Assembly (NCBI GenBank): GCA_965218795.1
Contig: OZ244653.1
Coordinates: 1,344,001 to 1,408,000, forward strand
Source: a bacterium
GTDB taxonomy: Bacteria; UBA8248; JACPRG01; G963555815
Reading direction: 5' to 3'
Length of the DNA: 64,000 bases
The position numbers were made by a program, and so were the translations under genes. Positions 12,257 to 56,656 of the stretch are shown here, one piece after another (positions within the stretch are counted from its first letter, which is position 1; every line of letters begins with the position of its first letter). The notes below the pieces were generated by a model. It was not told the origin of the DNA. It was given only the letters and a program-made list of their open reading frames with translations, and searched no databases.

Positions 12257-12284
12257 CGACTCATTACCTCCCAACTACAGAAGC

Positions 12285-15462: not shown

Positions 15463-15783
15463 TTATTTCACCAATCGCGCGCTCACGAGCCGGTTTAGAC
15501 TCACGCCTTCTTCCGCTGCCTGGATAGCCAGTTCGCGGTGCATTTCAGGCGGTATGCGTACCACGAACTTTCCGCTATAGAAGCGGTCGGACAGCGGTTT
15601 GGGCACTGTCTCTCCGGTGGCGCGCATGTCCGCGACGACGCTACGAACCAGCCTTTGGATCCCTGATAGAGCCTTATCGGGAGTAGGCGCCAGCCAGCTC
15701 AGCGATGGGAATTCAGCGCACAGGCCAACGTTCTCGTTGTCTTCGGCAGACCATGTGATGCGGTAGGTGTAACGGTCGTCCAT
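15463..15783 (-). CDS. hicB: HicB family antitoxin
   Basis: YTYRITWSAED..VGLCAEFPSLSWLA; C-terminal YSGKFVVRIPPEMHRELAIQAAEEGVSLNRL. Confidence 0.9.
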   Translation of the reverse strand: MDDRYTYRITWSAEDNENVGLCAEFPSLSWLAPTPDKALSGIQRLVRSVVADMRATGETVPKPLSDRFYSGKFVVRIPPEMHRELAIQAAEEGVSLNRLVSARLVK

Positions 15784-16031
15784 TCCATGCTCTCCAATTT
15801 CTCGATTGCCTTGATGACTCGGCGGACTTGATATGGTTTTGCCATGCCTTTGGCATTCTGAATATTCACTCTGGGGTCGCCCGGCCACGGAGTGCGGTAA
15901 ACCCGATGGCTTGCGCCTTTCTGGCGTGGTTTTCCGAAGAATTTGTCACATGTTTCAGCCAGGTCGGAGAACCGGACACCCTTCGGGTTGCGACGAAGCG
16001 CTTTAAGAATTGTCTCAGCATCCTTACCCCT
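15699..16031 (-). CDS. hicA: HicA family toxin; start codon unclear, C-terminus extended into hicB
   Basis: NPKGVRFSDL..CDKFFGKPRQKGASHRVYRTPWPGDPRVNIQ..GMAKPYQVR. Confidence 0.8.
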   Translation of the reverse strand, partial: RGKDAETILKALRRNPKGVRFSDLAETCDKFFGKPRQKGASHRVYRTPWPGDPRVNIQNAKGMAKPYQVRRVIKAIEKLESMEWTTVTPTASHGLPKTTRTLACALNSHR

Positions 16032-21119: not shown

Positions 21120-21136
21120 CCTTCGTAGCTTCCTTA

Positions 21137-21161
21137 GTAGGGCGGGGCTCCGTACCCGCCC
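21137..21161 (+). repeat. GTAG-type REP-like hairpin
   Basis: GTAG-GGCGGG-gctccgta-CCCGCC directly after the XDH1 repeat. Confidence 0.55.
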
Positions 21162-21282
21162 AAAGGCCAGGGCCGCGCCGCGGGATGCCCCCCGAACAGG
21201 ATCATCACGCGGAGAAGTGGATAACAACGGGAAATGTAGCCCCCCCTTGCTTATCGGATCCTGATAGGCGAAAACTGAAAAC

Positions 21283-24200
21283 ATGAGCGGAACGGACACG
21301 AAACTGACGGCCGCGGTGGAGACCTACTTCACCGATCTCGGACGGGTGCGCGCGTCGGGCGGCGCGACCGGGGAGCGGTCGAGCTACGGGCCGCTCGCCA
21401 ACCTGCTCAACGCCGTGGGCGCGACGCTCAAGCCAAAAGTGTTCTGCGTGGGCGAGTTGGTCGATCAGGGCGCGGGCCACCCCGACTTCGGCCTCTATGC
21501 GGCGAAGCAGGTGCAGAAGGGCCGGCCCCGGGAAGGCCAGATCCCCGAACGCGGCGTCGTCGAGGTGAAGTCCGCGGATGACGACGCCTGGCTCACGGCA
21601 ACGGGCGATCAGGTGAGCAAGTATTGGAACCGCTACCACCTCGTGCTGGTCACCAACACGCGCGACTTCGTTCTGGTGGGCGAGGACGCGGCGGGCCGCC
21701 CTTCGAGGCTGGAGACCTTCCGGCTGGCGGACAGCACGGACGACTTCTGGCGCAAGCTGGAGAAGCCGCGCGTCTTCACCCGCGAAGTCGGCGCAGGTTT
21801 GGGCGAGTATCTTTGCCGGGCCCTCTCACACCGGGCCGCGCTCGCCGAACCCAAGGACCTGGCCTGGCTCCTCGCTTCCTACGCGAGAGACGCCCTCTTT
21901 CGTGTCGAGGCCGCAGGCGATGCGCCGTCGCTCGAGACGGTGCGCTCTTCCCTTGAGGAAGCCCTGGGCGTCCGCTTCGAGGGCGAGCGTGGCGCGGCCT
22001 TCTTCCGTTCGACCCTGGTGCAGACCCTTTTCTACGGCGTGTTCTCCGCCTGGGTGCTCTGGGCGCGGCAATTGCTGCCGCCTAAAGGCGATTTCAACTG
22101 GCATGAAGCGGTCTGGCACCTGCGCGCGCCGGTCCTGCGGGCGCTGTTCCAGCAACTGTCCGATCCCGGCCGCTTGCAACCGCTGGGCCTCGTCGAAGTC
22201 CTGGACTGGACTTCTGCCGCGCTCGACCGCGTGGACCGGGCCGCCTTCTTCGCCCGTTTCAACGAGGGGGAGGCGGTGCCCTATTTCTACGAGCCGTTCC
22301 TGGAAGCCTTCGACCCCGAGCTCCGCAAGCAGCTCGGCGTCTGGTACACCCCAACGGAAGTGGTGCGCTACATGGTCGCCCGCGTGGACAAGGCGCTGAA
22401 GGACGACCTCGACATACCGGACGGGCTCGCCGCGGAGAACGTCTACGTCCTCGATCCCTGCTGCGGCACCGGGGCCTATCTCGCAGAAGTCCTGCGCCGA
22501 ATCGCCGCCAATCTGCAAGGCCGGGGCATGGGCGCGCTCGCCGGCGCGCGGGTGAAGCAGGCGGCCTTGAAGCGCGTGTTCGGCTTCGAGATCATGCCCG
22601 CGCCGTTCGTCGTGGCCCACTTGCAGGTCGGCTTGACCATGCAGGACCTCGACGCCCGGCTGGCCGAGGATGAACGCCCCGGCGTCTTCCTCACCAACGC
22701 GCTCACCGGCTGGGAGCCGCGAACGACCAAGCCCTTGCCCTTCCCCGAGTTGGAGGAAGAACGCGACCGGGCGGAGCAAGTGAAGCAGGAGACGCCCATC
22801 CTCGTGATCCTCGGCAACCCGCCCTACAACAGTTTCGCCGGCATGGCGGTGGGCGAGGAGCGGGAGCTTTCGGAAGCCTACCGGACGACAAGACGGGTAC
22901 GCCGTCCCGAAGGCCAGGGGCTGAACGATCTCTACGTCCGTTTCTTCCGCATGGCGGAGCGGCGCATTGCGGAGAAGACGGGCCGAGGCGTGGTCTGCTT
23001 CATCTCCAACTACTCCTGGCTCGACGGCCTGTCCTTCACCGGGATGCGGGAGCGGTATCTTGAGGCGTTCGACGCGGTGCGGATCGACAATCTGCACGGC
23101 GACCGTATCGTCTCGGAATACGCGCCCGACGGGCGGACCAGCGAAACGGTCTTCGCGCTTCGGGGACAATCGCCGGGTATCAAGGTCGGTACAAGCATCG
23201 CCCTATTTTCGAGATCCGGGACCGTCGCGGATATATCGACGGGCGGGCGCATCCTGTACCGCGATTTCCATCAGGCAAGAGCCGATGAAAGACGGCAAGC
23301 GCTGTTGGACAGTCTCGACGCTCCCGCAATCGATGCGGGCTACTCGGCATTGGAGCCCAATCTTCGCCTCGGCTTGCCGTTCAAGCCAACCGCGGTGAGC
23401 GAGGGCTGGTTCGACTGGCCGGCCCTGCCTGAGTTGTTCCCGGTGTCGTTTCCCGGAGTTCAGACCAGCCGCGACGGGTTCCTCGTGGATGTCGATCTCG
23501 ACCGGCTGCGAAAGCGTGTAAGCGACTACTTTGACGCTGGCCTGAGCCATGAGGAAATCGCGAGACGCTATCCGGCGGTAATGAAGGCGACGGCGCGGTT
23601 CGACGCCCGAACGGTGCGGGACGTGCTGCTGAAACGCGGTGGACCGGATGAATCCGGCTTCGTCCGCTTCGCTTACCGGCCATTCGATTGCCGTTGGCTC
23701 TATTGGGAGCAGGACACGAAACTTCTCGATGAGAAGCGCGCCGACTACAGGCCCCATGTGTTCGAGGGGAATATGTGGCTGTCCGCCGCGCAGCACCTGC
23801 GGAAGGGCGCGGGAGAACCGCAATCGTGTTTCACGCAGCATATCGGTGCGCGGCATCTGATCGAGCGCGGCGCCAATTGGTTCCCCGCTTGGCTTCGCGC
23901 AGACGCCCTGGACGCGCCGGACTCCGGCCGTCGCCCGAATCTTTCGGAAGCCGCGCAACGCTGGCTCAACCGTTTGGGGCTCAACGTGGAAGACCTGTTC
24001 CATCACGTCCTTGCCGTGCTCCACGATCCCGCCTACCGAGAGGCCAACGCCAGCGCGCTCCGCATGGAATGGCCGCGCATCCCCCTTCCCGGCTGGCCCG
24101 ACGGCGAGGCCGACGGCGGGGCCGGCGACGCGCTTGGGACGGAAGGACCGCTCCCCCGCTTCCGGGCTCTCTCTCCCTCTGGAGGGAGGGAAAATGAGAA

Positions 24201-24816
24201 CCCCTCTCCCGATGGGAGAGGGGAAGGGGTGAGGGCTCGTGAGGAGCGGCATAGGGAGCGCCAGCCCCTCCCGGAGAGAGGGGCTGCTGCGTCTGACAGC
24301 GCGGCGGAAGCGCTCTCCCGATCGGCGGCGCGGGGACGCGAGCTCGCCCGGCTGCTCGACCCCGACACGCCCGTTCCGGGCGTCACGGCAGCCCCATTGC
24401 GGCCTGAGATCGCCGCTGTCGCCGTACCCGCCACGACGGAGGGGCGCAACATGAGGGATGACGACTTCGCCCTCACCGCCGGATGGGGTCATTACGGAAC
24501 AGGCGATGCCGTGATGCCCGGCCAGGGCCGGGTTGTCGAGCGGGCCTATACGCCGGACGAACGCGCCGCCCTGGGCGAAGCCTTGCCCGCTCTCGGCAAG
24601 ACCACCTTCGACATCCACCTGAACGCCCGCGCCTTCTGGCGCAACGTCCCCGCCGCGGTCTGGGGCTACAGGCTCGGCGGCTACCAGGTCCTCAAGAAAT
24701 GGCTCTCCTACCGGGAGCGCGGCATCCTCGACCGGCCCCTCGCGCCCGAGGAAGTCCAGCACTTCACGGACACGGCGAGGCGGATTGGGGCGATCCTGTT
24801 GAGGACCGTTCGATGA
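21283..24816 (+). CDS. Type ISP/IIG-like restriction-modification fusion (nuclease + N6-adenine MTase + LlaBIII-like specificity domain)
   Basis: PD-(D/E)xK-like GHPDFGL..VVEVK; GVWYTP; motif I VLDPCCGTG; motif IV GNPPY; FAYRPFD; C-terminal GGYQVLKKWLSYR. Confidence 0.9.
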   Translation: MSGTDTKLTAAVETYFTDLGRVRASGGATGERSSYGPLANLLNAVGATLKPKVFCVGELVDQGAGHPDFGLYAAKQVQKGRPREGQIPERGVVEVKSADDDAWLTATGDQVSKYWNRYHLVLVTNTRDFVLVGEDAAGRPSRLETFRLADSTDDFWRKLEKPRVFTREVGAGLGEYLCRALSHRAALAEPKDLAWLLASYARDALFRVEAAGDAPSLETVRSSLEEALGVRFEGERGAAFFRSTLVQTLFYGVFSAWVLWARQLLPPKGDFNWHEAVWHLRAPVLRALFQQLSDPGRLQPLGLVEVLDWTSAALDRVDRAAFFARFNEGEAVPYFYEPFLEAFDPELRKQLGVWYTPTEVVRYMVARVDKALKDDLDIPDGLAAENVYVLDPCCGTGAYLAEVLRRIAANLQGRGMGALAGARVKQAALKRVFGFEIMPAPFVVAHLQVGLTMQDLDARLAEDERPGVFLTNALTGWEPRTTKPLPFPELEEERDRAEQVKQETPILVILGNPPYNSFAGMAVGEERELSEAYRTTRRVRRPEGQGLNDLYVRFFRMAERRIAEKTGRGVVCFISNYSWLDGLSFTGMRERYLEAFDAVRIDNLHGDRIVSEYAPDGRTSETVFALRGQSPGIKVGTSIALFSRSGTVADISTGGRILYRDFHQARADERRQALLDSLDAPAIDAGYSALEPNLRLGLPFKPTAVSEGWFDWPALPELFPVSFPGVQTSRDGFLVDVDLDRLRKRVSDYFDAGLSHEEIARRYPAVMKATARFDARTVRDVLLKRGGPDESGFVRFAYRPFDCRWLYWEQDTKLLDEKRADYRPHVFEGNMWLSAAQHLRKGAGEPQSCFTQHIGARHLIERGANWFPAWLRADALDAPDSGRRPNLSEAAQRWLNRLGLNVEDLFHHVLAVLHDPAYREANASALRMEWPRIPLPGWPDGEADGGAGDALGTEGPLPRFRALSPSGGRENENPSPDGRGEGVRAREERHRERQPLPERGAAASDSAAEALSRSAARGRELARLLDPDTPVPGVTAAPLRPEIAAVAVPATTEGRNMRDDDFALTAGWGHYGTGDAVMPGQGRVVERAYTPDERAALGEALPALGKTTFDIHLNARAFWRNVPAAVWGYRLGGYQVLKKWLSYRERGILDRPLAPEEVQHFTDTARRIGAILLRTVR
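24151..24284. repeat. CCCTCTCCC/GGGAGAGGG palindromic repeat units inserted in frame in the RM gene
   Basis: CCCCTCTCCCgatGGGAGAGGGG-aaggggtgaggg at 24201-24235 plus two degenerate units; related unit at 52726-52763. Confidence 0.75.
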
Positions 24817-25806
24817 AATTCAAGGATTGGTTGCGCCTGCCGCTGCTCATCCGCCGCGTGACCGGTCGGGATGCGTTCCGGTGGATGACCGGGATAGCGA
24901 TCGTACTGGCGACCGGCATCTTTTTCTCCTGGCGTTATTGGGGAGAGTTGCACGGGGATCAGGAATCGCTCAGCACGACTGTCCGCAATGTGGGCGTCGT
25001 GATCGGTGGCGTCATTGCAATACTGCTCGCTGTCTGGCGCGGCACGGTGGCGGACCGTCAGGCGAAGGCGGGGCAGCGGCAGTCCGAAACAGCGCAGCAG
25101 GGCCTGTCGAACGAACGCTACCAGAAGGGCGCGGAGATGATCGGCAGCGGCGTTCTCTCGGTCCGTCTGGGCGGCGTCTACGCCCTGCAACGTCTGGCCG
25201 AGGAGCATCCCAAGCAATACCACGTCCAGATCATGCGTCTGTTCTGCGCCTTCGCGCGCCACCCAACCGAGGACAGCGAGGAAAAAACCAAACAAGTCGG
25301 ACAGCCTGACTCCGAAACAAAACCGCTGCCCCGCCCGGATATTCAGGCGATCATGGAGGCTATTAGAGACCGCAGAGAGGCAGCCGTTGCTCTTGAAAAG
25401 CAAGATGGCTTTAAGTGGAATCTTGTGTCGGTCAATTTGAGTGGATCGCACCTCGCAAACATAGACTTTAGTCTGGGCGCGGCTTTGGAAAGCGAACCTA
25501 TCCGACGCGGTCCTCATAGCGGCAGACATGTCCGGTGCGGTTCTCAATGGAGCAAACCTATCCAACGCAAACCTCGTGAGTGCAAACCTGAATCTTGCGC
25601 GCCTTGATGGAGCAAACCTATCCAGGGCGTGGATTATAGACGCTAACCTGACCGGTGCGAACCTGTCCAACGTAACCGGACTGATGCAGCAGCAACTCAA
25701 TGAAGCCCGCGCCTATCCCGATTAACCGCCCAGGTTGGACGGCGCTCTTGCCGCCGAGACTGGCAAACCGCTGGTCTGGCGCGGCAAGCCGCCCGACGAC
25801 GAATAG
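24813..25806 (+). pseudogene. Membrane-anchored pentapeptide-repeat protein, frameshifted, with in-frame stop
   Basis: ATGA overlap with RM stop; two TMs; NERYQKGAEMIGS..VRLGGVYALQRLA; A(N/D)LxG repeats after a shift near 25480; TAA at 25723-25725, then tail PPRLDGALAAETGKPLVWRG to TAG 25806. Confidence 0.8.
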
Positions 25807-25842
25807 ACGCGCGGGGCGACGCATTTTGATTGATGCGATGTT

Positions 25843-25914
25843 CGCCATCACCCCCGCGATAACCCTCTCCACACGCTCGGCCGCCTCGACGAGGTGGCCG
25901 TCGGCGTAGCGGAT
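25843..25914 (-). pseudogene. C-terminal remnant of a tyrosine integrase
   Basis: IRYADGHLVEAAERVERVIAGVMA resembles the RYAHL...EAA.RV tail of the integrases at 55456-57861. Confidence 0.55.
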
Positions 25915-26243
25915 CAAAAACAGTTGAGAATGGCCTGGAAAATCCGGGGGATTTCCGGGGCGAAACGGCCCGGGAATCGCCCCTGAGAGGGGGCGTGCAT
26001 CGACGTTGCTCGATGCCGGCGGTGGCCGATCTGCTGTATCGAACCAGGGGCGAGTTCTCGCCCATTAGGGGGGAAAGCCCGGATATCCTGACGCGGAATC
26101 CGTACTCAATCAATATGTTTCAATGGGTTCGTTTCATGTATAAAGTCTGAATCCATGCGGATTGCGTCCATCTCCGACAACCTGGCGAGAGGACTCCCCT
26201 TCTGTCGCCGCCTCGGCCGGGGTGACTCAGAGAGAACCCATTC

Positions 26244-27113
26244 TTGATCGACTCGCCTATCCCGCTCGCCCTTTGCGCGGCCGCGGCCCTGGCTTTTTCC
26301 GACTTCGCCATCCGCCCCGGCGCCCGCCACACGACCGCCTTCACCGGATCTTTCGTGCTTGCGGCTGTCCACTTCATCCTGTTCGCGCCGCTGGCCCTGT
26401 GGCGGTTTCCACAAATGGACATCTGGAACCCGGGATTCTGGTGGTACGTCGCCTCAGGCGTGATGGACCCCGGGCTCGGGCCCCTTTGTTATTTCATTGG
26501 GGTCTCCCGCGTGGGCATAGCGAGGGGGTCGAGCATCATCGCGACGTATCCGATCTTCAGCACCGCGGGGGCCATTCTGCTGGTGGGCGAACACCCAAAC
26601 CCATGGGTGTGGGTGGGGACGGTCGCCATTGTCGCAGGCGTCGCCTCGCTCGCCTATGAACGGCGCGCACAGACCGTCGATCGATCGGGCTTCGTCTTTT
26701 TGATACTCGCCGCTTTGTTTCTGGGACTGGCTCACCCCTTCCGGAAAATCGGGTTGACGTACATCCCATCGGCCATCGTGGGACTGGCCATTGCGCCGGC
26801 GGGATGCTTTGTCACTCTGTTCCTGATCGCCCCGTTGCTGCAGGCAGACGCCCGTTTCAATCTGAACCGAAAGGGGGTGGCTTACTATTCTCTGCACGCA
26901 GCGGGAAACGGACTGGCCCTCTTTCTGATCCTGACTGCCTTGCGGCTGGGACAGGTCAGCGTCGTCATACCGCTGACCCGCACGTTTCCCCTGATCGTCA
27001 TCTTTCTGGCCTGGCTCTTCCTGAGAAAAAAAGAGCCCATCACCGTTCGGCTTCTCTTTGGGGCAACCCTGATCGTACTCGGAGCGGCCGTTATCGCCGG
27101 GTTGGGAAAATAG
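26244..27113 (+). CDS. EamA/DMT family transporter
   Basis: Two EamA repeats; GQVSVVIPL..FLRKKEPIT. Confidence 0.88.
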   Translation: MIDSPIPLALCAAAALAFSDFAIRPGARHTTAFTGSFVLAAVHFILFAPLALWRFPQMDIWNPGFWWYVASGVMDPGLGPLCYFIGVSRVGIARGSSIIATYPIFSTAGAILLVGEHPNPWVWVGTVAIVAGVASLAYERRAQTVDRSGFVFLILAALFLGLAHPFRKIGLTYIPSAIVGLAIAPAGCFVTLFLIAPLLQADARFNLNRKGVAYYSLHAAGNGLALFLILTALRLGQVSVVIPLTRTFPLIVIFLAWLFLRKKEPITVRLLFGATLIVLGAAVIAGLGK

Positions 27114-27446
27114 AAGGCATGCCATCCAAGGTCAGTCCGCCGCTCTCATGGACTCTGCAAAGGCCGTGGGATTGCCGTGCGATGGTCGGTCGTCGCACCA
27201 GAAAGAAAGGAGAGGGAGCGTCATGGGCGGTCCAGTCGCCCGAACCTCGGGGGTTTGTCCGAATTCGACAGTTGATTGTTGACGCCATCTTGTCTTCTAT
27301 GCGAAAGTGCCTTGAATTCCATTGAGCCAATTCCAAAGGAACGGGACTGAAGCGGCGTGGTTGTTTGGATATCTCGCCTGGCTGGGGGACGGCGCCGGAA
27401 TTTCCAGCCCATGGTTCAACGAATCCAAGCCTTGGAGGAAAAAACG

Positions 27447-28487
27447 ATGACCTGGAAACACTGGCTCACCCTGGTTCTGCTCCTCACCCTCTTTGTCTCC
27501 CTTTCGGTCTCATCCTCTCAGGCCCAGATGAAAAAAAAGGTGACGTTAACCGAGGATTGGATCCTGTACGGAGCGCAGTTGCCTGAATTTCTGGCGAGGG
27601 AGAAAGGGTTTTATGCGGCCGAAGGGTTGGATGTCAATATCGTCCGGGGCTACGGTCCGGGCGACACCGTGAAGAAAGTCGCCGCAGGGGCTTCCGAGTT
27701 CGGTCGTTCGGCGGGCATCAGCGACATCCTGGGGCGGGCCGGCGGAGCCAAAATCAAGATCGTTGCCGTGCCCATGCTGACGCCTCCGTTCGGAGTGGTT
27801 TTTCTCAAGAGCAGCGGAATCCGAAACCCCAAGGATCTCGAAGGGAAAAAGCTCGGAGCGCCCGCCGCCTCTTCCGCCTTTCGCATGTTCCCGGCCTTCG
27901 CTCAAGAGACGGGAATCAACCAGTCCAAGATCACGGTTGTCAATATGGACCCCGCGGGCCTGGTCGGGAGCCTGGTGGTCAAAAGCGTGGACATATGCAT
28001 CTTTTGGCCCACCGAGATGCCCGCGTACGCCAAGGCCGCCAAACAACGGGGCGAAGAGGTGTCCTACATGCTCTATGCCGATTACGGGGTGAGGGACATG
28101 TACGGAAACACCTTTATCACCGCAGATAACATCATCGCGAAGAGCCCGAAAGTAGTCCGGGGCTTTGTCCGGGCGTCCCTGCGGGGGCTTTCGTACACCA
28201 TTGAACATCCGGACGAGGCGGTGAAGGCTTTCATGAAGCACAGCGCGGCCTCGGACCCGGCCGTCATCAAGGGAGAATGGCTCGAGACCGCAAAGCTGGC
28301 CTTTGATGACCTGTACGAAAAGAACGGGCTCGGTTTTGCAGATCCCGGAAAAATGAAGGCCTCTCTTCAGCTCGTGAGGAAATACTTCGACGCCAAAGCA
28401 ACGATCAAACCCGAGGACGTCTATACGAACGAATTCGTCCTGGCGACTCCGCGAGAGTGGCGAACCGCCAAGCGGCCGGCCAAATAA
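27447..28487 (+). CDS. ABC substrate-binding protein, NMT1/THI5-like
   Basis: Signal peptide; KGFYAAEGLDVNI; PKDLEGKKLG; EDVYTNEF; RBS GGAGG. Confidence 0.88.
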   Translation: MTWKHWLTLVLLLTLFVSLSVSSSQAQMKKKVTLTEDWILYGAQLPEFLAREKGFYAAEGLDVNIVRGYGPGDTVKKVAAGASEFGRSAGISDILGRAGGAKIKIVAVPMLTPPFGVVFLKSSGIRNPKDLEGKKLGAPAASSAFRMFPAFAQETGINQSKITVVNMDPAGLVGSLVVKSVDICIFWPTEMPAYAKAAKQRGEEVSYMLYADYGVRDMYGNTFITADNIIAKSPKVVRGFVRASLRGLSYTIEHPDEAVKAFMKHSAASDPAVIKGEWLETAKLAFDDLYEKNGLGFADPGKMKASLQLVRKYFDAKATIKPEDVYTNEFVLATPREWRTAKRPAK

Positions 28488-28693
28488 TCCGGCCGCCGGT
28501 TTTGCTGAAACTGTCAAAGGCTCCCGGAACCCGGTGCGCCGTCCGACCGGTGCGGGCGAAAGCCTGCATTGGAGTTCCCGACCGCTTCCCAGCGTCGTGA
28601 CGAATCGCGCGATGTGAAACGAATCTGAGCGACAGCGGGCCGGCCATTCGTCGGGAGAAGGCGCTGCGGCCCATGCCCCGAAGGAGGGCTATC

Positions 28694-29965
28694 GTGAAAA
28701 CCAAACGGGTTCGATCCGGTGCGCCCCAGCCGGTGGCCTACTATTCCGAGGCCATGACAGCCGGTCCCCTGGTATTCGCCGCCGGACAGATCGCCAGCGA
28801 TTTTACAACCGGCATTCCTCCGGAAGCCCGTGTAGATCCCGCCTTTCCCTACTACGGCTCCGACATCAAGCGACAGACCGAATACATCCTCAAGACCGTG
28901 TCGAAAACCTTCGAGGCGGCCGGGACATCCCTCGACAACGTGATCAAAGCCCAGGTCTTCCTCCCCGACCTCAACCATTTCTTCGCCTTCGACGAGGTCT
29001 GGAAAGAATTCTTCAAAATGCCGCCCCCGCGCACGACGGTCGGGACAACGGGCCTCCTCGCGCCGGGTTGTCTCGTCGAGATCGATCTTATCGCCTATCG
29101 TCCCCGTCCAGGGTGGAAGCACGAGGTGGTTCGATCGAAAGCGCCCCGGCCCCTCGCCAACTACTCCGAGGCCTTCCGGGTGGGAGACTTCGTCTTCGCC
29201 GCGGGGCAGGTCGCCAGCGACTACCGGACCGGCATCCCGCCCGAAGCCGGGGTAGACCCCGCCTTTCCCTACTACGGCTCCGACATCAAGCGGCAGACCG
29301 AATACATCCTCAACAACCTCTCCAAGACCTTCGAGGCGGCCGGGACCTCGCTCGACCATGTGGTCAAGGCCCAGGTCTTCCTCACCGACCTCGACCATTT
29401 CTTCGCCTTCGACGAGGTCTGGAAAGAATTCTTCAAAATGCCGCCCCCGCGCACGACGGTCGGGACGACAGGCCTTTTGGTGCCGGGCTGTCTGGTCGAA
29501 ATCGACCTCATCGCTTACGTTCCTCGAAAGGGGTTAAAACGCGAGGTGGTTCGATCGAAAGCGCCCCGGCCCCTCGCCAACTACTCCGAGGCCTTCCGGG
29601 TGGGAGACTTCGTCTTCGCCGCGGGGCAGGTCGCCAGCGACTACCAGACCGGCATCCCGCCCGAAGCCGGGGTAGACCCCGCCTTTCCCTACTACGGCTC
29701 CGACATCAAGCGTCAGACCGAATACATCTTCAACAACCTCTCCAAGACCTTCGAAGCGGCCGGGACCTCGCTCGACCATGTAGTCAAGGCCCAGGTCTTC
29801 CTGGCCGACGACGAGTTGGAGGGGCTTTACTCGAAGGCGGCCGCCCGGGATGAGGTTTGGCGAAGCTTCTTCAAGACACCGCCCCCGCGCACGACGGTCG
29901 GGACGACGGGTCTGCTGGTGCCCGGGAGCTTGATCGAGATCGACCTGATCGGCGTTATGGGTTGA
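28694..29965 (+). CDS. Triple-domain Rid (RidA/YjgF/UK114) family protein
   Basis: Three ~140-aa units, each with YSEA..VFAAGQ..LD.V(V/I)KAQVFL..PPPRTTV..EIDLI; GTG start after AAGGAGGG. Confidence 0.92.
   Translation: MKTKRVRSGAPQPVAYYSEAMTAGPLVFAAGQIASDFTTGIPPEARVDPAFPYYGSDIKRQTEYILKTVSKTFEAAGTSLDNVIKAQVFLPDLNHFFAFDEVWKEFFKMPPPRTTVGTTGLLAPGCLVEIDLIAYRPRPGWKHEVVRSKAPRPLANYSEAFRVGDFVFAAGQVASDYRTGIPPEAGVDPAFPYYGSDIKRQTEYILNNLSKTFEAAGTSLDHVVKAQVFLTDLDHFFAFDEVWKEFFKMPPPRTTVGTTGLLVPGCLVEIDLIAYVPRKGLKREVVRSKAPRPLANYSEAFRVGDFVFAAGQVASDYQTGIPPEAGVDPAFPYYGSDIKRQTEYIFNNLSKTFEAAGTSLDHVVKAQVFLADDELEGLYSKAAARDEVWRSFFKTPPPRTTVGTTGLLVPGSLIEIDLIGVMG
28710..29950 (+). repeat. Intragenic tandem repeat, 420-bp period, 3 copies
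   Basis: Lines 29161/29581, 29221/29641 and 28981/29401 are nearly identical. Confidence 0.95.
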
Positions 29966-29993
29966 GAAGAGATTCTCTCTTCGCTCGATCCTG

Positions 29994-30245
29994 CTACGGA
30001 TTCGCGGGTTTCCTTGGCTCGACGATTTCCAAGACCTTCTCGGGCGTGAACGGAAGAGTTTTGAGTAGGCGCCCGAGGGCCGGGAAGGTTCTCTTCACCT
30101 TGCGCGAGGGAATTTGGCCCTCGTAGCTTCCTTCAGTCGGCCGTTGACCGGATTGCGAATCGTCTCGAACGGTTCTCATCCTGAAGGCAGGTAGGAGGCT
30201 GGTGACCTTTTCCATGACATTTTCCGGCGTGAACGGGAGGAGTCT
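29994..30245. other. Cluster of three orphan XDH C-terminal tails in alternating orientation
   Basis: Minus 30059-29994 TLPFTPEKVLEIVEPRKPANP*; plus 30085-30126 KVLFTLREGIWPS*; minus from ~30243 LLPFTPENVMEKV. Confidence 0.8.
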
Positions 30246-30312
30246 CCCGCGAGTCGGACAAGAATCAGTGGAAGGAGGAGGAACGGCTATCCTCGGCAGT
30301 GGGCCGCGAATC

Positions 30313-31251
30313 TCACCCCGCTCCCTTCCGGTAGGGAATGCCGATGGCCGCCGGTCCCTGGGTGCGGCCGCCGAAAAGCACCAGGATGACGAGTGTGAGG
30401 ACGTACGGAAACATCAGCATGAACTGGTGCGGGATATCGAACCCGAGGCCCTGCGCCCGGAACTGGAGCGCGTCGGCCCCGCCGAAAATCAGGCAGGCGA
30501 TCAGTCCCCCAACCGGATCCCATCGGCCGAAAATCAACGCGGCCAGGGCGATGAACCCCCGTCCGCCCACCATCTCGTCCATGAAGAAATGAAGCTGGCC
30601 GAGGGACATGAAAGCCCCGCCCGCGCCCACGAGCACGCCTGAGATCACAACGCAGACGTACCGCACCCGCTCGGGATTGATCCCCACGGTGTCGGCGGCG
30701 CGGGGGTGCTCCCCGGTCGAGAGGACCATGAGTCCCCACCGGGTCCGGTACAGGATGACGGAGAACAGGGGGACCAGCAGGAGGGCGACATAGACCAGGA
30801 GGTGTTGATGGAACAGGATCGCCCCCACGTAGGGGATGTCTCCCAAAAGAGGGACCTTGACGGGATTGAAGTGGGGAACGATGCGCTGCTGGTCCTTGAG
30901 GCCGAAGAGGATCCGGATCAGAAAGCTGCTCATGCCCAGGCCGATAATGTTGATGGCGGCACCCGAGACAATCTGATTGGCCTTGAGGGATACCGAGACA
31001 AAGGCATGGACCCAGGCGATCAGCCCGCCGGCGAGAACTCCGCAGAGGAAACCAATCCAGGGACTGTGCAGGTACCACGCGCCGAGCACGCCCGTGAGCG
31101 CGGCCATGAGCATGATGCCTTCCAAGCCGATGTTGATCACGCCGGCCCGTTCGTTCAGGATTCCGCCCAGCGTAGCGAACAGAATGGGCGTCGACAGGCG
31201 GACCGTCGCCCCGACAAAGTCGGCGTCAAAGAGCTGGAGGAAGGCTTCCAC
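30313..31251 (-). CDS. Nucleoside/purine ABC transporter permease
   Basis: ERAGVINIGLEG, GEHPRAADTVG, GRGFIALAA. Confidence 0.93.
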   Translation of the reverse strand: MEAFLQLFDADFVGATVRLSTPILFATLGGILNERAGVINIGLEGIMLMAALTGVLGAWYLHSPWIGFLCGVLAGGLIAWVHAFVSVSLKANQIVSGAAINIIGLGMSSFLIRILFGLKDQQRIVPHFNPVKVPLLGDIPYVGAILFHQHLLVYVALLLVPLFSVILYRTRWGLMVLSTGEHPRAADTVGINPERVRYVCVVISGVLVGAGGAFMSLGQLHFFMDEMVGGRGFIALAALIFGRWDPVGGLIACLIFGGADALQFRAQGLGFDIPHQFMLMFPYVLTLVILVLFGGRTQGPAAIGIPYRKGAG

Positions 31252-31275
31252 CCGAAGGTCTCCTCGCCAAGCCGT

Positions 31276-32331
31276 CTAACGCTTCCGAGCCTGCAGCCAC
31301 TCACGGACCGCTACGCCCAGCATGAACAGAATGACCATTCCCTGAATGACCATCACCAGGGAGGTCGGAAGCCCGGTCTGCCGCTGCATTTGATTCGCGC
31401 CCACCCGAAGCGCCCCGAAGAGAAAGGCGGCGAAAATCACGCCGATGGGATCCGAACGGCCCAGGAAGGCCACGGCGATCCCGTCGAACCCATATCCCGG
31501 GGAGAAGAAATCCAGAAGCCGGTATTGTCCCCCCTGGATCTCCGTCGCGCCCGCCAGACCCGCCAGCCCTCCGCTGATTCCCATGGCCGCGAAGACGAAC
31601 CGGCGCACGGAAATCCCTGCGAACCGGGCCGCTTCCGGCCCCAGGCCGACCGCCCTGAGCTCCATGCCGAAGGGGGTTCTCCAGATCAGGTAGGAAAGAA
31701 TCATGGCGCACGCCACCGCCAGGAGGACCGCGACCGAAAGGTCCGTGCTCGCCTGGAGAATGGGAAGCCGGGCCGAGGGCTCGATTTGAGCCGTCTGATG
31801 GTAAAACCCGGGCGGCTCCGCAAGGGGACCCTGGACCAGATAGCTCACAAGATAGATGGCAACGAAATTCAGCATGATAGTCGTGATGATTTCGTTGATC
31901 CCCCGGGACGCGCGAAGATAGCCTGCGACCCCGCCCCAGAAAGCGCCGGCCAGAAACCCCGACAACAGACAAAGGGGGATATGCAGGAAAGACGGCAGGC
32001 CGCGGACGTAAATGCCGACCAGGACGGCGGCCAGGGCGCCGGCGTACAATTGCCCCTCGGCCCCGATGTTGAGCAGATTGCAGCGGAAGGCGAAGGCGAC
32101 GCTGAGGCCGGTCAGGATGAGCGGGGTCGTCTTCGTCAGTGTGACGCCGAGGCTGTACAGGTTCCCGAATGCGCCGTCGAGGAGCGCCAGATATGCAGTG
32201 ATGGGGTTCACCCCGGCCAGGAGGATCAGCACCGCGCTCAGGGCGAGGGCCAGAGCAATCGCGGCGAGGGAGATGGACGTCGTCCGCAGCGCGGCAAACG
32301 CACGGGGCGCGGGCGCCGAAGTGGCGGTCAT
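31276..32331 (-). CDS. Nucleoside/purine ABC transporter permease
   Basis: LLNIGAEGQ, INEIITTIMLNF, GYGFDGIAVA. Confidence 0.93.
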   Translation of the reverse strand: MTATSAPAPRAFAALRTTSISLAAIALALALSAVLILLAGVNPITAYLALLDGAFGNLYSLGVTLTKTTPLILTGLSVAFAFRCNLLNIGAEGQLYAGALAAVLVGIYVRGLPSFLHIPLCLLSGFLAGAFWGGVAGYLRASRGINEIITTIMLNFVAIYLVSYLVQGPLAEPPGFYHQTAQIEPSARLPILQASTDLSVAVLLAVACAMILSYLIWRTPFGMELRAVGLGPEAARFAGISVRRFVFAAMGISGGLAGLAGATEIQGGQYRLLDFFSPGYGFDGIAVAFLGRSDPIGVIFAAFLFGALRVGANQMQRQTGLPTSLVMVIQGMVILFMLGVAVREWLQARKR

Positions 32332-33857
32332 TCGCCCCGCTCCCTTGCTTCCTGCAGCGGCGTCCCGGCCATCATCAGTCCCACCTCCTCCCGCGATGTC
32401 TCCTCCGAGTCGACAAGTCCCATAATCTCCCCTTCGTAGAGGACCATGACGCGATCGCTCAGGGCCAGGATTTCCTCCAGCTCCGTGGAGACCAGCAGGA
32501 TGGCCATCCCCTGATCCCGGGCTTCAATGAGCTGCTGCTGAACGTATTCGGCGGCCCCCACGTCGAGACCCCGAGTGGGTTGGGCCGCCAGGAGCAGCGG
32601 AGGCTGCAGGCCCAGCTCTCTCGCCAGGATCAGCTTTTGCTGGTTTCCGCCGGACAGCGTGGAGGCCAGGACGTTGGGGCCTGGCGCGCGGACGTCGAAT
32701 TTCCGCATGGACGCCTCCGCGTTCTCTCTTATGGCGGCGGGGTTCAACCGCATCCAGCTTCCGAGGGGCGGACGGCCGCAGGATTTGAGCACCAGGTTTT
32801 CCGCCACCGTGAATTGCAGCACGAGGCCCGTGTGATGCCGGTCCTCGGTGACGTGACCGATGGAGCGGAACCGGTCCCTTCCGGAGGCCGGGATCCCTGC
32901 GATGGATACTTCGCCGCGCTCGATTGGACGGACCCCGGCGATAGCTTCGACCAGCTCCTTTTGTCCGTTACCGTCCACCCCGGCGATTCCCAGGATCTCC
33001 CCCTCGGCCAGGGAGAAACGGACCCCCTTGACGGACGGCAGACTCCGGTCGTCTCTGACCTGCAGGTCTTTCACGCTCAGTATGGTCTTCCCCCTCCTGG
33101 CCGATTCCCCTCGGGGCGGGGCGACCTGCCGTCCCACCATCATCTCGGCCAATTGGGCGGGCGTGGATTCGGCCACGTCCATGTCCTCGATGCGCCGGCC
33201 GGCCCTGAGCACCGTGACGCGGTCCGCAACGGCCTTCACCTCGTTGAGCTTGTGGGTAATGAAGATGATCGAGCGTCCGCTGTCGGCCAGATTCTGGAGA
33301 ATCTTGATCATCTCTCTGACTTCCCCGGGCGTGAGGACGGCGGTGGGTTCGTCCAGGATCAGAAGCTCCGCTTCCCGGTAGAGCGCCTTCAGGATCTCCA
33401 CGCGCTGCTGGGCCCCCACGGGCAGTTGCCAGACCCGGGCCTTCAGGTCCACATCCAGCCCGTAGTCGGCGGCGAGCTTTCCGATCCGGGCCTCAGCGGC
33501 CTTCAGGTCCAGTAGGGGATTCCTGCGTCCGGGGGGAGAGCGGAGGCCGAGGACGATGTTCTGGGTCACGGTGAGGGGCGGAACCAGCATGAAGTGCTGG
33601 TGGACCATCCCGATTCCCATCTCGATCGCGTCCCGCGGCGAGCGGAAGCTGACTTCCTGGTCGCGAAAGAGGATTCTCCCCGAATCCGGCCGGTAGATGC
33701 CGTACAGCGTGTTCATCAAGGTGGTCTTGCCGGAGCCGTTCTCCCCCAGCAGCGCGCGAATCTCGCCCCGCTTCACCTCGAAGTCGATCCGATCATTGGC
33801 CAGAACGCCGGGGAACCTCTTGGATATCCCCTCCATACGGAGAAGAGGCGCGCGCAT
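32328..33857 (-). CDS. Nucleoside ABC transporter ATPase (dual NBD)
   Basis: GENGSGKT, LILDEPTAVLTP, LSGGNQQK, QPTRGLD. Confidence 0.95.
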   Translation of the reverse strand: MRAPLLRMEGISKRFPGVLANDRIDFEVKRGEIRALLGENGSGKTTLMNTLYGIYRPDSGRILFRDQEVSFRSPRDAIEMGIGMVHQHFMLVPPLTVTQNIVLGLRSPPGRRNPLLDLKAAEARIGKLAADYGLDVDLKARVWQLPVGAQQRVEILKALYREAELLILDEPTAVLTPGEVREMIKILQNLADSGRSIIFITHKLNEVKAVADRVTVLRAGRRIEDMDVAESTPAQLAEMMVGRQVAPPRGESARRGKTILSVKDLQVRDDRSLPSVKGVRFSLAEGEILGIAGVDGNGQKELVEAIAGVRPIERGEVSIAGIPASGRDRFRSIGHVTEDRHHTGLVLQFTVAENLVLKSCGRPPLGSWMRLNPAAIRENAEASMRKFDVRAPGPNVLASTLSGGNQQKLILARELGLQPPLLLAAQPTRGLDVGAAEYVQQQLIEARDQGMAILLVSTELEEILALSDRVMVLYEGEIMGLVDSEETSREEVGLMMAGTPLQEARERGE

Positions 33858-33893
33858 GCCGCAGTCTTTCGCTCGGATTCAGGCGGAAAAGGG

Positions 33894-33922
33894 TCCGCCC
33901 CCCGTCAAGGACGGGGGGCGGA
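33894..33922. other. Intra-operon 13-bp perfect hairpin (probable mRNA stabiliser after the binding-protein gene)
   Basis: TCCGCCCCCCGTC-AAG-GACGGGGGGCGGA. Confidence 0.6.
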
Positions 33923-33940
33923 AGGAGGTGCAAAGAATTT

Positions 33941-34957
33941 TCAGATCTTCTTGATCTTCTGCTTCATCAGCTTCTTGAGATTCGGCGCGGGGATATTGAT
34001 CTCGCCCGATTTGATCTTCTTGACCAGGGTGCTGATATCGTCCTTCACCTTCTGGGGCACCATGGGACCGTAGGGACCCACTTCCAGAACGCCTGATTTC
34101 AGGCCGAACATGTTGATTCCAGATTTGAAATTGCCCTCGGTCACAGCCTTGACGGACTTGTAGAGCATTTCGCCCGTCTTGATAACCGCAGACGAGACAA
34201 CATGCTTCGGGGCGAGCTTCCGCTGATCGGCGAAGTAACCCATGGTCAGGACGTTCTTCTCCCGTGCCGCCTCGATCACGCCCAGCCCGCTGGCGTCCGC
34301 CAGATGAGCGACAATGTCGGCCCCTTGAGAGATGAGCGCTTTGGCGGCCTCTTTCCCTTTGACCGGGTCATAGAAAGTCCCCGTCCATATGACGTTCACT
34401 GTCGCGTTGGGTTTTGCCTTGCGCACGCCCTTCTCGAACGCGTCCACCTGGATGCGGATCGGCGGGATTTCCCAGCCGCCCACGGCCCCCACATTTCCCT
34501 TCTTGCTCATCTTGACCGCGAGTTGTCCCATCACGTGGAAGAGCTCCTGGTGGGCGACATGCAGGTTCGCCAGGTTCGGAGCCTTACCGAATCCGTAGGT
34601 GTTGATGAAGTGTTTTTTGGGGAACTGCTTCGCCACTTTGGACATGGCGTCGCCCCATTGGAACCCGTGCGAGATGATCACATCGTAGCCCCGGTTGGCA
34701 TAATCCCGGAGGGTAGACACAAAGTCGGGCCGTTGGACGTTCTCGGAGAAGGCGACCTCCGCTCCCATCCTCTCCTTGGCGATCATCAGTCCCACGTGGG
34801 CGCTCGCGTTGAACCCCTTATCGCTGACGGCGCCCGGAAGGCACAGGGCGACCTTCAACTTGCTCGCCGCGGGGGCGCTCCCGGGAAGCGCCAACAGCAG
34901 GAACAAGGCGCTCAGGAACAGAGATTGGACAGCCCGGAAAAACATCTTGCTTTTCAT
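33941..34957 (-). CDS. BMP family ABC substrate-binding protein
   Basis: Signal peptide; PGAVSDKGFN; GTFYDPVKGKEAA; QGADIV. Confidence 0.92.
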   Translation of the reverse strand: MKSKMFFRAVQSLFLSALFLLLALPGSAPAASKLKVALCLPGAVSDKGFNASAHVGLMIAKERMGAEVAFSENVQRPDFVSTLRDYANRGYDVIISHGFQWGDAMSKVAKQFPKKHFINTYGFGKAPNLANLHVAHQELFHVMGQLAVKMSKKGNVGAVGGWEIPPIRIQVDAFEKGVRKAKPNATVNVIWTGTFYDPVKGKEAAKALISQGADIVAHLADASGLGVIEAAREKNVLTMGYFADQRKLAPKHVVSSAVIKTGEMLYKSVKAVTEGNFKSGINMFGLKSGVLEVGPYGPMVPQKVKDDISTLVKKIKSGEINIPAPNLKKLMKQKIKKI

Positions 34958-35482
34958 TCCTTTACCCCCGTTTTTCATGTTGTGTTTGAGGTTCCCGATT
35001 CCTTCGGCCGGGGGACTCGGGGAAGCATGTGAAACCGCGTCTCCGGTCCCCATTGAACCCGATTCGAAATCTCCCTTCTTCACGGTTCGGCGTTCAGGTG
35101 TTTCGCCTGATAGTCCGTCAAGGGACGGCGATTGATGTGCGGCAGGTTACGTCGGCAGTGGATCCCGTCCTTCTGATACCGGGTGACGAGTTCGGGAACA
35201 TTCACCGCCGCTTCCTCGAGCCTTTTGGCGTGCGCAATTAGGAACTGAACTATCCCTGATCCCCGTGCTGAATGTAAAGGGTCTCTCAGACTTCGAGAGA
35301 AGACTTGCGCGCCCCGGGCTGGAATTGAATACCGCGGATATTGTGCCGAGCGTCCACGGAGCGTCGAAGACGCGGGAAACCCTCTCAATCAATCGGAACC
35401 CGGAATCTTACCAAACAAGGGCTCTGCCGAAAAGTCCGACCGATGCGTGAACACGACCTCGATTCGACCTTCCGATATTTCA

Positions 35483-37624: not shown

Positions 37625-37794
37625 CGACGACGCTGTCGCGCGCCTCTTTCCATGCCCATTGATGAAAACAGCGTCAACGGAAGACCATTCCTCTGGACAC
37701 CGGTTCCACGCAATCCTGCCGACAGGTGGTCGTCTCCCGGATTCGCCGCTATAATGAGTCCTCTTTGTCGCCGGATTCCACTGGAGCCTACGAG

Positions 37795-40083
37795 ATGACC
37801 GATTATGCCGTATTGGGAAAAAACCTGCCTAGAGTAGACGGCTTGCCGAAAGCCACCGGCGAGTCGGAATACGCGGCCGACCGTGCCGTTCCGGGATGTC
37901 TGACGGGGAAAATCCTTCGAAGCCCCTATCCGCACGCCCGGATCCTGAACATCGACACCTCCGAAGCGGAGAAGGTGAAAGGGGTCAAGCTTGTCGTTTC
38001 GGGCAAGGACTTCCCCAACATTCATTATGGAATGTGGATTCTCGACGAAGTCCTCTTCGCCCGCGACAAGGTCCGATATGTCGGTGACGAGGTGGCGGGG
38101 GTGGCCGCCGTTGATGAGGACGCCGCGCAGGAGGCGCTGGATCTCATCCGGGTGGAATATGAGGAGCTTCCGGCCGTTTTCGACCCGGGGGAAGCCCTCC
38201 AGCAGGGCGCCCCCCTGGTCCACGAAGATTTTGCCGATACCAAGGCCATCTTCAACGTCGTCGGACGGGAGGGGAACCAGGCGTGCAAGGTTCGGTTCCA
38301 TCATGGGGACGTGGAGGAAGGACTCCACGAAGCGGACGAGGTCATTGAAAACCGGTTCACCACGCACCCTCAGCATCCAACCTACCTGGAAACCCATTCC
38401 GCCCTGGCCGAATGCGATTCCTCCATGAACCTGACCCTCTGGCTGACGACTCAGTCGGTCTTCAAAGCGCAGGAGCTTGTCAGCAAGCTCCTCGATCTGC
38501 CTCTCAGCAAGGTGCGGGTCATCGGCTCGACCGTCGGGGGCGGATTCGGCGGGAAGAAGCCGCGCGTCGAACAGTTTGCGGCCGCCATGGCATTGAAGAC
38601 CCGTAGCCCCGTCCGCATCACCCTCACGAGGGAAGAGGACCTGGCGACCACCTTCCAGCGGCACCCGACCATCGTCGATATCAAGACCGGCATCAAAAAA
38701 GACGGCACCCTGACGGCCTGGGACTTCCAGATGCTGATGGACACGGGGGCCTATTCCGACCACGGCCCTTCCATCATGGCGATGGGCGCGTTTCACGCGC
38801 GCGGGCCTTATCGGACGCCGCACGTCAACGTCGAAGGCCGCCTGGCCTACACCAACAAGACAATCAGCGGGGCCTTCCGGGGCTATGGCAATCCGCAGGT
38901 CGCCTGGGCCACCGAATCACAGATGGACATCATCGCGCAAACCTTGGGCATCGACCCGCTGGAACTGCGTCACAAGAACGCCATGCATCAGGGCGACCCG
39001 ATGGTGAACGGTCAGAAGTACCCCGAAGTGCGTCTTGTGGAGACCTTGGACCAGGCCGCCGAGGCCTTCGGCTGGAGGAAGGACGGGCAGCGGTCCAACA
39101 ACGGCAAGAAGCGCGGCATCGGCGTGGCATGCGGCTCCCACCCTTCGGGGGGAATGAGCTCATCGGCCTTGGTCAAGGTGATGGCAGACGGGACCATCCA
39201 GGTGTTGAGCGGCGTGATCGATATCGGACCCGGTCAGTACACCGTCGCCGCACAGATGGCGGCTGAGGCCCTCGGCGTGCCCTATGAGAAGGTGCGGATG
39301 GTCACCGCCGATACCGACGGCACCCCGTACGAGAACATCACTGCCGCCTCCCGGGTGACCTTCAACATGGGCCACTCCGTACGCCTGGCCGCCGAGGACG
39401 CTCGCAAGGAACTGATAACGCGAGCCGCGGAGATGCTGGAAGCGGACGTAGAAGATATAAAGACCGAAAGCGAGCGGGTCTTCATCGCCTCCACGCCCGA
39501 GCGCGGGCTGAGTTATTCCGACGTCGCCCGGGCCGCCAATATCTTCAAGGGCGGACCCATCGTGGGCAAAGGCTCTTTCAGCGCGTCACAACCGCCTCCG
39601 GTCATGGACAACATCGAAGGATCCACCATGATCGGATTCCCGACCCACGGCTTCGTTACGCATATGGCCGAAGTGGAAGTGGACGAAGAAACGGGGGAGG
39701 TCGAGGTGCTCCGGCTGGTCTGCTCTCACGACATCGGCCAGATTGTCAACGTCGGCGGCCTGGAGGGACAGATTGAGGGAGGAGTCACGCAGGGATTCGG
39801 TTTCGCCCTCGTGGAAGAAATGGTCTTCGAGGGGGGGACGCTCGCCAACGGGACCATGGTGGATTACAAGATCCCGAACATCCTGGACGTCCCGCCCATC
39901 GAACCACACTTCGTGGAAAAACCGGATCCCGCAGGGCCATTCGGCGCGAAAGGAGTCGCCGAGGCCGTCCTCGTTCCGACTGCTCCAGCCATCGCGAGCG
40001 CCGTGTTTGACGCCGTGGGGGCTCGTATCACCGACCTTCCGATAACACCCGACAAGGTGCTGCAAGCCTTGAAGAAACCCTGA
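37795..40083 (+). CDS. Xanthine dehydrogenase family molybdopterin-binding subunit (XDH2)
   Basis: GGGFGGK, AFRGYGNPQ, AASR, QIEGG, GAKGVAE, LPITPDKVL. Confidence 0.95.
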   Translation: MTDYAVLGKNLPRVDGLPKATGESEYAADRAVPGCLTGKILRSPYPHARILNIDTSEAEKVKGVKLVVSGKDFPNIHYGMWILDEVLFARDKVRYVGDEVAGVAAVDEDAAQEALDLIRVEYEELPAVFDPGEALQQGAPLVHEDFADTKAIFNVVGREGNQACKVRFHHGDVEEGLHEADEVIENRFTTHPQHPTYLETHSALAECDSSMNLTLWLTTQSVFKAQELVSKLLDLPLSKVRVIGSTVGGGFGGKKPRVEQFAAAMALKTRSPVRITLTREEDLATTFQRHPTIVDIKTGIKKDGTLTAWDFQMLMDTGAYSDHGPSIMAMGAFHARGPYRTPHVNVEGRLAYTNKTISGAFRGYGNPQVAWATESQMDIIAQTLGIDPLELRHKNAMHQGDPMVNGQKYPEVRLVETLDQAAEAFGWRKDGQRSNNGKKRGIGVACGSHPSGGMSSSALVKVMADGTIQVLSGVIDIGPGQYTVAAQMAAEALGVPYEKVRMVTADTDGTPYENITAASRVTFNMGHSVRLAAEDARKELITRAAEMLEADVEDIKTESERVFIASTPERGLSYSDVARAANIFKGGPIVGKGSFSASQPPPVMDNIEGSTMIGFPTHGFVTHMAEVEVDEETGEVEVLRLVCSHDIGQIVNVGGLEGQIEGGVTQGFGFALVEEMVFEGGTLANGTMVDYKIPNILDVPPIEPHFVEKPDPAGPFGAKGVAEAVLVPTAPAIASAVFDAVGARITDLPITPDKVLQALKKP

Positions 40084-56624: not shown

Positions 56625-56656
56625 AGCACCGAGGCGGCATGAGGCTGGATCCGGAC

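Follow-up and report, generated by a model that had tools for sequence, protein, structure and literature searches.

Genomic islands can integrate at the 3′ ends of tRNA or protein genes, which then serve as their att sites. In the R64/IncI shufflon, the invertase Rci acts at sfx sites and thereby varies the C-termini of PilV, according to excerpts of two sources (10.1101/2024.10.25.620183 and PMC5430464). Restriction-modification genes have been described as inserting with long target duplications, and the excerpts available from Furuta, Abe & Kobayashi 2010 (PMC2853133) give as criteria that R and M functions lie inside, that the insert is shorter than 20 kb and that the repeat is longer than 30 bp. 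The same excerpts describe 46-bp repeats that overlap gene 3′ ends, include table rows with repeat identities of 91-100% (93-100% arm-to-arm) and cite an earlier H. pylori report as ref. 37.

The locus described here lies in a window (the whole stretch of DNA that was analysed, 64,000 nucleotides long) that corresponds to bases 1344001-1408000 of a single-contig genome of 5.17 Mb with 60.5% G+C; coordinates below are those of the window unless stated otherwise. It contains a 250-base intergenic patch, on one side of which a triple RidA-domain gene has its stop (29965) and on the other an ABC permease gene of the opposite strand (30313). An earlier note on this DNA had recognized three orphan 3′ ends of xanthine dehydrogenase (XDH)-family Mo-subunit genes in the patch, here called relics A, B and C, and six-frame reading confirmed them. 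Relic B is a duplicate of the 3′ end of XDH1, the XDH gene of the same lineage located 9 kb away. Together, the two copies (DR-L and DR-R) bracket an 8.9-kb block whose first gene encodes a Type IIG restriction-methylase and which contains no mobility gene. We propose that the patch represents fixed rearrangement scars and that B fits a restriction-modification-linked insertion that duplicated a long piece of its target, a reading to which we give about an even chance of being correct. The note had already considered scars, in the form of repeated integration by a recombinase; the scars themselves are supported for B, which is the arm of a direct repeat, and plausible for A and C, and the recombinase-driven integration found no support.

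The patch is best read as non-coding DNA where three synteny blocks meet. Its reading as RNA gave one sub-threshold Rfam match, located outside the patch, its fold had a z of -0.95, and no promoter-like or terminator-like sites were found in it. Directly 3′ of the RidA stop, at 29969-29985, we observed a perfect 7-bp hairpin (GAAGAGA, 3-nt loop, TCTCTTC). The hairpin region through 29983 is kept in two relatives (G004 and G006), and a 23-mer at this hairpin resembles, at 19 of 23 positions, sequence close to the end of a dispersed 2.6-kb element described below.

Relic B (30080-30133, plus strand; stop at 30124-30126) reads ...GKVLFTLREGIWPS up to its stop and coincides with DR-R. Its counterpart, DR-L (21082-21135, plus strand), consists of the last 38 nt of XDH1 and 16 nt past the stop. 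The two arms form a 54-nt direct repeat with 49 of 54 positions identical, which the earlier note had not reported; 8,998 nt separate the arm starts, and the interval enclosed by the arms is 8,944 nt long. Across the whole genome, B matched the XDH1 end with a blastn E value of 6e-12, and the repeat was unique. Among the 72 XDH tails tested (150 nt each), an orphan copy exists for XDH1 only, and the remaining cross-matches of tails fell in other full genes or dispersed intergenic repeats. XDH1 itself (18780-21119, plus strand; 779 aa) encodes a full-length Mo-binding subunit with the Pfam domains Ald_Xan_dh_C, MoCoBD_1 and MoCoBD_2 and ends ...TTLPITPEKVLFALREGI before its stop; its NCBIfam matches lie below the equivalog cut-offs, which gives a family-level assignment with no substrate call. 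The XDH1 orthologs, at 78-80% DNA identity, end ...WPL (G001), ...WPS (G003) and ...WPG (G004), each followed by the stop. In XDH1, TGG has changed to TAG at 21117-21119, and the protein is three residues shorter than the ancestral form, whereas relic B retains the ancestral ...IWPS ending with the Trp codon TGG. When the five differences between the arms were polarised against G001, three were derived in DR-L and two in DR-R; thus, both arms descend from one sequence of the XDH1 lineage and have since drifted. Moreover, the repeat includes post-stop untranslated bases that are absent from the same-genus ortholog, and B therefore derives from XDH1 of this lineage.

Between the XDH1 end (21119) and the patch start (29994) lie five intact genes and one broken gene. 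A REP-like GC hairpin (21140-21161) stands exactly at the edge of DR-L, abutting its end, and blurs the true end of the repeat; this 22-mer has 16 genome sites at up to 3 mismatches, four of them exact (including 21140-21161 itself), and a 28-nt exact copy elsewhere. The first gene of the block encodes a Type IIG restriction enzyme-methyltransferase (21283-24816, plus strand; 1177 aa) with Pfam matches to N6_Mtase, Eco57I and Type_ISP_C, for which PADLOC reported REase_MTase_IIG at 7e-91 over residues 90-517 and at 9e-76 over residues 285-935. The adjoining membrane/pentapeptide-repeat gene (24810-25725, plus strand) consists of two overlapping ORF pieces and is apparently frameshifted; its second piece matches pentapeptide models and its first piece has no Pfam match. 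A MITE-like dispersed repeat (25845-26035), with about 20 blastn matches of 77-92% genome-wide, precedes three plus-strand genes assigned by Pfam and NCBIfam, which encode an EamA transporter (26244-27113), an NMT1/SsuA-type binding protein (27357-28487) and the triple RidA-domain protein (28673-29965). From the other side, a Bmp/PnrA-type ABC transporter operon (30313-35083, minus strand; Pfam) ends at the patch. The interval between the arms also takes in relic A, and no transposase or integrase Pfam match was found within 21136-30079.

The family to which the restriction-methylase belongs is clearly mobile. The genome has a paralog of the restriction gene at 80%, which adjoins two tandem tyrosine recombinases, and short fragments of the gene at five other places, two of which are probably one broken copy; one of the fragments is next to another recombinase pair. 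The summed contig depth of the restriction gene was 100-1000x that of its flanks in four runs. Over the restriction ORF (21362-24901), depth reached hundreds to about 10,000 in X15, X19 and X1, compared with about 5-25 over the flanking genes, which indicates that close (at least 90%) copies of the restriction gene are very abundant in these samples. No XDH was found within 1.5 kb of the restriction-gene homologs in five other genomes. We also looked at a possible second flanking repeat at the restriction-gene paralog and rejected it: the match (39 nt, 92%) corresponds to the terminus of a dispersed element of ~2.6 kb and not to a target duplication. This element (G000:C1:1882408-1884984) has about nine copies at 92-97% and is probably an insertion sequence; a partial copy of its end is located on the far side of the paralog and its two tandem tyrosine recombinases. 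Further defence or mobile genes in the window are an MmeI-like N-terminal part, a HEPN protein, a HicB antitoxin and a DDE transposase (1-903, 11798-12274, 15466-15888 and 45717-46499, respectively).

Relic A (29994-30086, minus strand; codons from 30086 to 29997, stop at 29996-29994) translates as FPALGRLLKTLPFTPEKVLEIVEPRKPANP followed by the stop, that is, the last 30 codons of a gene, with ten codons upstream of LPFTPEKV included. Relic C (30204-30257, minus strand) contains ..GRLLPFTPENVMEKV.. and has the motif LPFTPENV (30239 to 30216), about five XDH-like codons upstream of it and no stop of its own. A thus extends further than in the earlier description, which had each tail starting at or within LP(F/I)TPEKV. 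The best extant tail for A is that of a paralog whose end lies at genome position 1621345 (BLOSUM 71), and A shares 62% DNA identity with XDH1 over 66 nt, the mean for the family being 49%. A repeat search additionally showed that A and C, which are in direct orientation to each other, are 81% identical over 36 nt, a match unreported by the note. C is identical to the XDH1 motif DNA at 20 of 24 positions, and no extant tail is a better donor for it than A at 81%. The search for the source paralogs of the tails, which the note had proposed, led to the XDH1 end for B and to no close source for A and C. Judged by their sequences, A and C are not recent copies of any extant tail, and A is plausibly the end of a lost XDH paralog. 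The readings of A and B have 7 nt in common (30080-30086), possibly a microhomology joint.

A strict tail-motif regex run over six frames of the 5.17-Mb genome returned 31 matches, comprising 23 full-length XDH ends, one pseudogene fragment, A and C, and five unrelated sequences. The A and C matches are 183 nt apart, beside B, and this cluster is not due to chance. A 73-codon open frame (29997-30215, minus strand) runs from C through the antisense of B into A and is probably not a gene. It has no NCBIfam match, and no other family members were found among 1.84 billion representatives except for a weak repeat-protein match; with one residue changed, it was also called on another contig of 13.8 kb (P0001). 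When an A-type tail on another XDH was sought in the protein collection with a 41-aa query, the only match among four candidates was the 73-codon ORF itself. A HMMER scan of the 1.84 billion representatives returned only this ORF and the weak repeat-protein match (P0002), and a degenerate 11-codon pattern found one unrelated locus (L032) in species-representative genomes. A decayed A-like relic 3′ of RidA in G004 and G006 was considered and rejected, as its DNA alignment score was equalled by 133, 86 and 96 of 300 shuffles.

The whole genome carries 70 full-length XDH-family Mo-subunit genes plus two broken copies, where full length means at least 700 of the 779 residues (70 of 77 tblastn segments). 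The 14-mers common to the paralogs peak 60-120 nt before the stop, with 715 in this bin and 16-568 in the other in-gene bins (the next being 568 and 523), and each of the three relics has its break at this most DNA-conserved stretch or just upstream of it. The tail that follows the motif is short and unconserved among paralogs. For recent tail exchange, none of 1596 paralog pairs gave a sign (top motif-region identity 0.82, z at most 3.5); this test covered the 57 of 70 genes that could be anchored, the other 13 having been omitted because the anchor regex failed. Many of the 70 XDH/CoxL-family genes have no adjacent small- or medium-subunit genes in the scanned ORFs, such as XDH1 and the copy at 37726-40083. 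Further short gene relics are present elsewhere in the genome. The XDH gene at genome positions 1137813-1140098 has orphan copies of two of its internal segments, at 1140136-1140219 (84 nt, 95%) and 1141999-1142047 (49 nt, 98%), the 84-nt fragment sitting 38 nt upstream of the start of its parent gene. About 145 residues from the C-terminal part of an XDH are preserved as a pseudogene fragment (G000:C1:2542348-2542775), with the tail motif intact. Additionally, a paralogous triple-RidA gene (69% aa; G000:C1:4479258-4483075) is directly followed by an XDH gene (65% to the second XDH of the window), and RidA-then-XDH may be an ancestral module.

We compared the window with 40 relatives. Homology ends at 21104-21130 in the XDH1 orthologs, at 29983 and at 30315, with different neighbours each time, and the patch thus lies where three synteny blocks join. 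G004 and G006 share synteny over the NMT1-RidA pair, and in them homology of 87-88% extends from 27274 (G004) or 27431 (G006) to 29983. In G001, homology begins at 30315, in the permease operon, with a different gene downstream, and the XDH1 orthologs of G001, G003 and G004 are followed by unrelated DNA. Apart from the match of B to the XDH1 end of G001, the 40 relatives contain no match to A, B or C; no empty site was found among them either, the relatives being too rearranged and the same-genus genome only about 78% identical. A metagenome scan with the RidA protein yielded five loci, one with a G006-like copy ending 198 nt past the gene and four with other neighbours.

The patch arrangement is stable and contiguous in two other assemblies, and the strain run X1 differs from it over 30055-30283. 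Contigs from X15, possibly the source sample, span 20300-21369 and 29683-30900 with zero differences. A contig from X19 covers A and ends at 30079, the boundary between A and B, with depth continuing past this point. X1 represents a 98-99% strain, in which one contig spans 20300-21379 with the DR-L-to-restriction-gene junction as in the reference. A second X1 contig of 1,297 nt matches 29879-30054 and continues with 1,121 unlike bases, and a third of 3,552 nt matches from 30284 on, after 223 unlike bases; the X1 depth over 30055-30211 is wholly explained by contigs stopping at 30054. These contig breaks and depths indicate that B and most of C are missing from the X1 strain, which instead contains at least 1.3 kb of different sequence. 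The X1 break (30054/30055) falls at the upstream edge of the motif of A. A contig joint from 29233 to 30693 with 38 other letters was also seen in X1, X15 and X19 at a depth of 59-78, far above the local depth, and probably belongs to another organism.

On the reading that we favour, the block would have entered or been joined at the XDH1 end while a long piece of the target was duplicated, as has been described for restriction-modification units, and the two repeat copies would then have diverged by drift. Relic A may have arrived as the truncated right end of the block, and C may already have stood in the old spacer between XDH1 and the transporter operon, left over from a further paralog that was lost. 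The breaks may cluster at the LP(I/F)TPEKV DNA because this stretch is the most alike among the 70 paralogs, which would favour short-homology joining. Several observations count against an insertion, however. No empty site was found in the relatives. X1 is without B and C and yet has the junction between DR-L and the restriction gene, and no XDH lies within 1.5 kb of the homologs of the restriction gene in five other genomes. Additionally, the synteny of the NMT1-RidA pair in another genus means that part of the supposed insert may be resident DNA, and insertion by itself leaves A and C unexplained. If the favoured reading is true, the patch would be an ordinary scar and a worked example, in an uncultured-type genome, of restriction-modification-linked insertion in which a long piece of the target is duplicated.

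The apparent residence of the NMT1-RidA pair also speaks for a different history, in which the 9-kb interval was never inserted. Here, A would be the end of an XDH that was once convergent with RidA and whose body was lost, and the break would have been healed by template switching at motif homologies, in an MMBIR-like mechanism that copied 54-64 nt from the XDH1 end (B) and a tail-like piece (C). Such a repair would account for short pieces of alternating orientation that each start at the most conserved paralog DNA, as well as for the 7-nt overlap of A and B. It is also consistent with X1, which retains A to 30054 and then has at least 1.3 kb of other sequence in place of the B and C seen here, and with the second known parent-proximal fragment (84 nt, 95%, 38 nt upstream of its own XDH start). 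However, it offers no donor for C better than A at 81%, and the searches of the protein collection, the 1.84 billion representatives and the species-representative genomes revealed no XDH with an A-type tail. The 9% divergence of B from its source would furthermore require age or error-prone copying, and we consider this history unlikely, though the likeliest of the rivals.

A broader proposal is that the ~60 nt of conserved DNA before the stop is a place where short-homology recombination or template switching has recurrently caused breaks among the 70 paralogs, whose ends would be shed, copied and occasionally exchanged. The patch and the X1 difference would then be a live example, possibly including an in-frame replacement of the XDH1 tail through a 17-nt inverted core. 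We regard this as rather improbable. One conserved 3′ stretch of a 70-member family marks all three breakpoints at the patch and one strain difference, which would make paralog-driven genome instability testable in this organism.

That direct repeats of att size lie at both ends of the block and overlap the 3′ end of a gene that is kept intact could also reflect a decayed integrative island. In this case, a tyrosine-recombinase element would have entered the XDH1 3′ end with its own tail copy, making DR-L and DR-R its attL and attR, and would later have lost its integrase, with A and C as older att remnants. The restriction-gene paralog beside two tandem tyrosine recombinases and the fragment beside another pair agree with such an origin. 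A whole-genome search for PF00589 (Phage_integrase) gave 38 matches, the nearest at 56065-57767 (fragments, 26 kb downstream) and 59 kb upstream; according to this search and the Pfam scans of the window ORFs, no tyrosine recombinase lies within 26 kb of the patch, and there is none in the block or at either of its ends, which argues against the island. The fragments at 56065-57767 recur with identical scores at G000:C1:4772042-4773744 and look like a duplicated broken element. Against an island, moreover, the arm differences resemble two-sided drift from one sequence and not a foreign attP, A and C are wrongly oriented for accretion at XDH1, and an orphan copy exists for just 1 of the 72 tails. 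We therefore judge this origin improbable.

The earlier note had suggested an active, shufflon-like inversion, in which the C-terminal tail of XDH1 is exchanged with that of A, and several of its observations were correct. The octamers CTCGGGCG (30039-30046) and CGCCCGAG (30070-30077) are at the positions claimed, and the 17-mer inverted match between XDH1 (21076-21092) and A (30049-30033) is exact and in the same codon phase, and so an inversion would give XDH1 the tail of A in frame. A strain-level structural difference also maps to the patch. However, a recombinase targeting the TPEKV-coding DNA, as the note supposed, is not supported, there being no recombinase nearby and no resolvase match in the genome, and three of the four shufflon features tested were absent. 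Repeated inverted site pairs bounding cassettes were not found, and the XDH1 body lies 9 kb from the patch instead of abutting it. The motif 21-mer, at up to 3 mismatches, has seven genome matches, with XDH1, A and C as the only ones in the region and no intact copy in B. Only the reference junction was seen at 20300-21379 (X15 and X1) and across the patch (X15), and no strand-changing joint was present among the 15 listed of 75 contig joints, contigs being prone to drop rare variants. Since the post-motif tail is short and unconserved, its exchange has no evident selective value, and no paralog pair exceeded 82% identity in the motif region. Altogether, an active inversion seems very improbable, and the locus serves as a caution that clusters of short C-terminal fragments in paralog-rich genomes can mimic phase-variation cassettes. 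Least credible of all is an assembly chimera of paralog ends: 70 paralogs might confuse an assembler, but no exact run common to a relic and a paralog exceeds 18 nt, the X15 contigs span the patch, another assembly has the same C-to-A frame with one change, and X19 covers A to 30079 with depth continuing beyond.

Compared with known systems, the locus resembles the R64/IncI shufflon in having partial C-terminal pieces that face either way and a short inverted repeat through which a tail could be exchanged in frame. Unlike the shufflon, it has no Rci-like recombinase and no set of sfx-like sites bounding cassettes, its constant gene body is 9 kb off, and no structural heterogeneity was seen within an assembly. 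It shares with genomic islands at gene 3′ ends the duplication of the target 3′ end as direct repeats and a gene left functional, and differs from them in having neither integrase nor excisionase and in repeat differences that fit drift from a single sequence. With respect to the restriction-modification-linked insertions, as far as the excerpts of PMC2853133 describe them, the arms here are 9% diverged, against identities of 91-100% (93-100% arm-to-arm) in the table rows, and no empty-site genome was found. Unlike those cases, genes for transport and metabolism are also present in the block, including a pair that shows synteny in another genus, and the junction contains two additional, unrelated tail relics. 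Nonetheless, the block combines R and M functions with an insert of 8,944 nt and a repeat of 54 nt, in line with the three sequence criteria given in those excerpts, and also has no mobility gene. Like the insertions described there, it contains no transposase or integrase, and it is bounded by a repeat that is found nowhere else in the genome and that overlaps the 3′ end of a gene.
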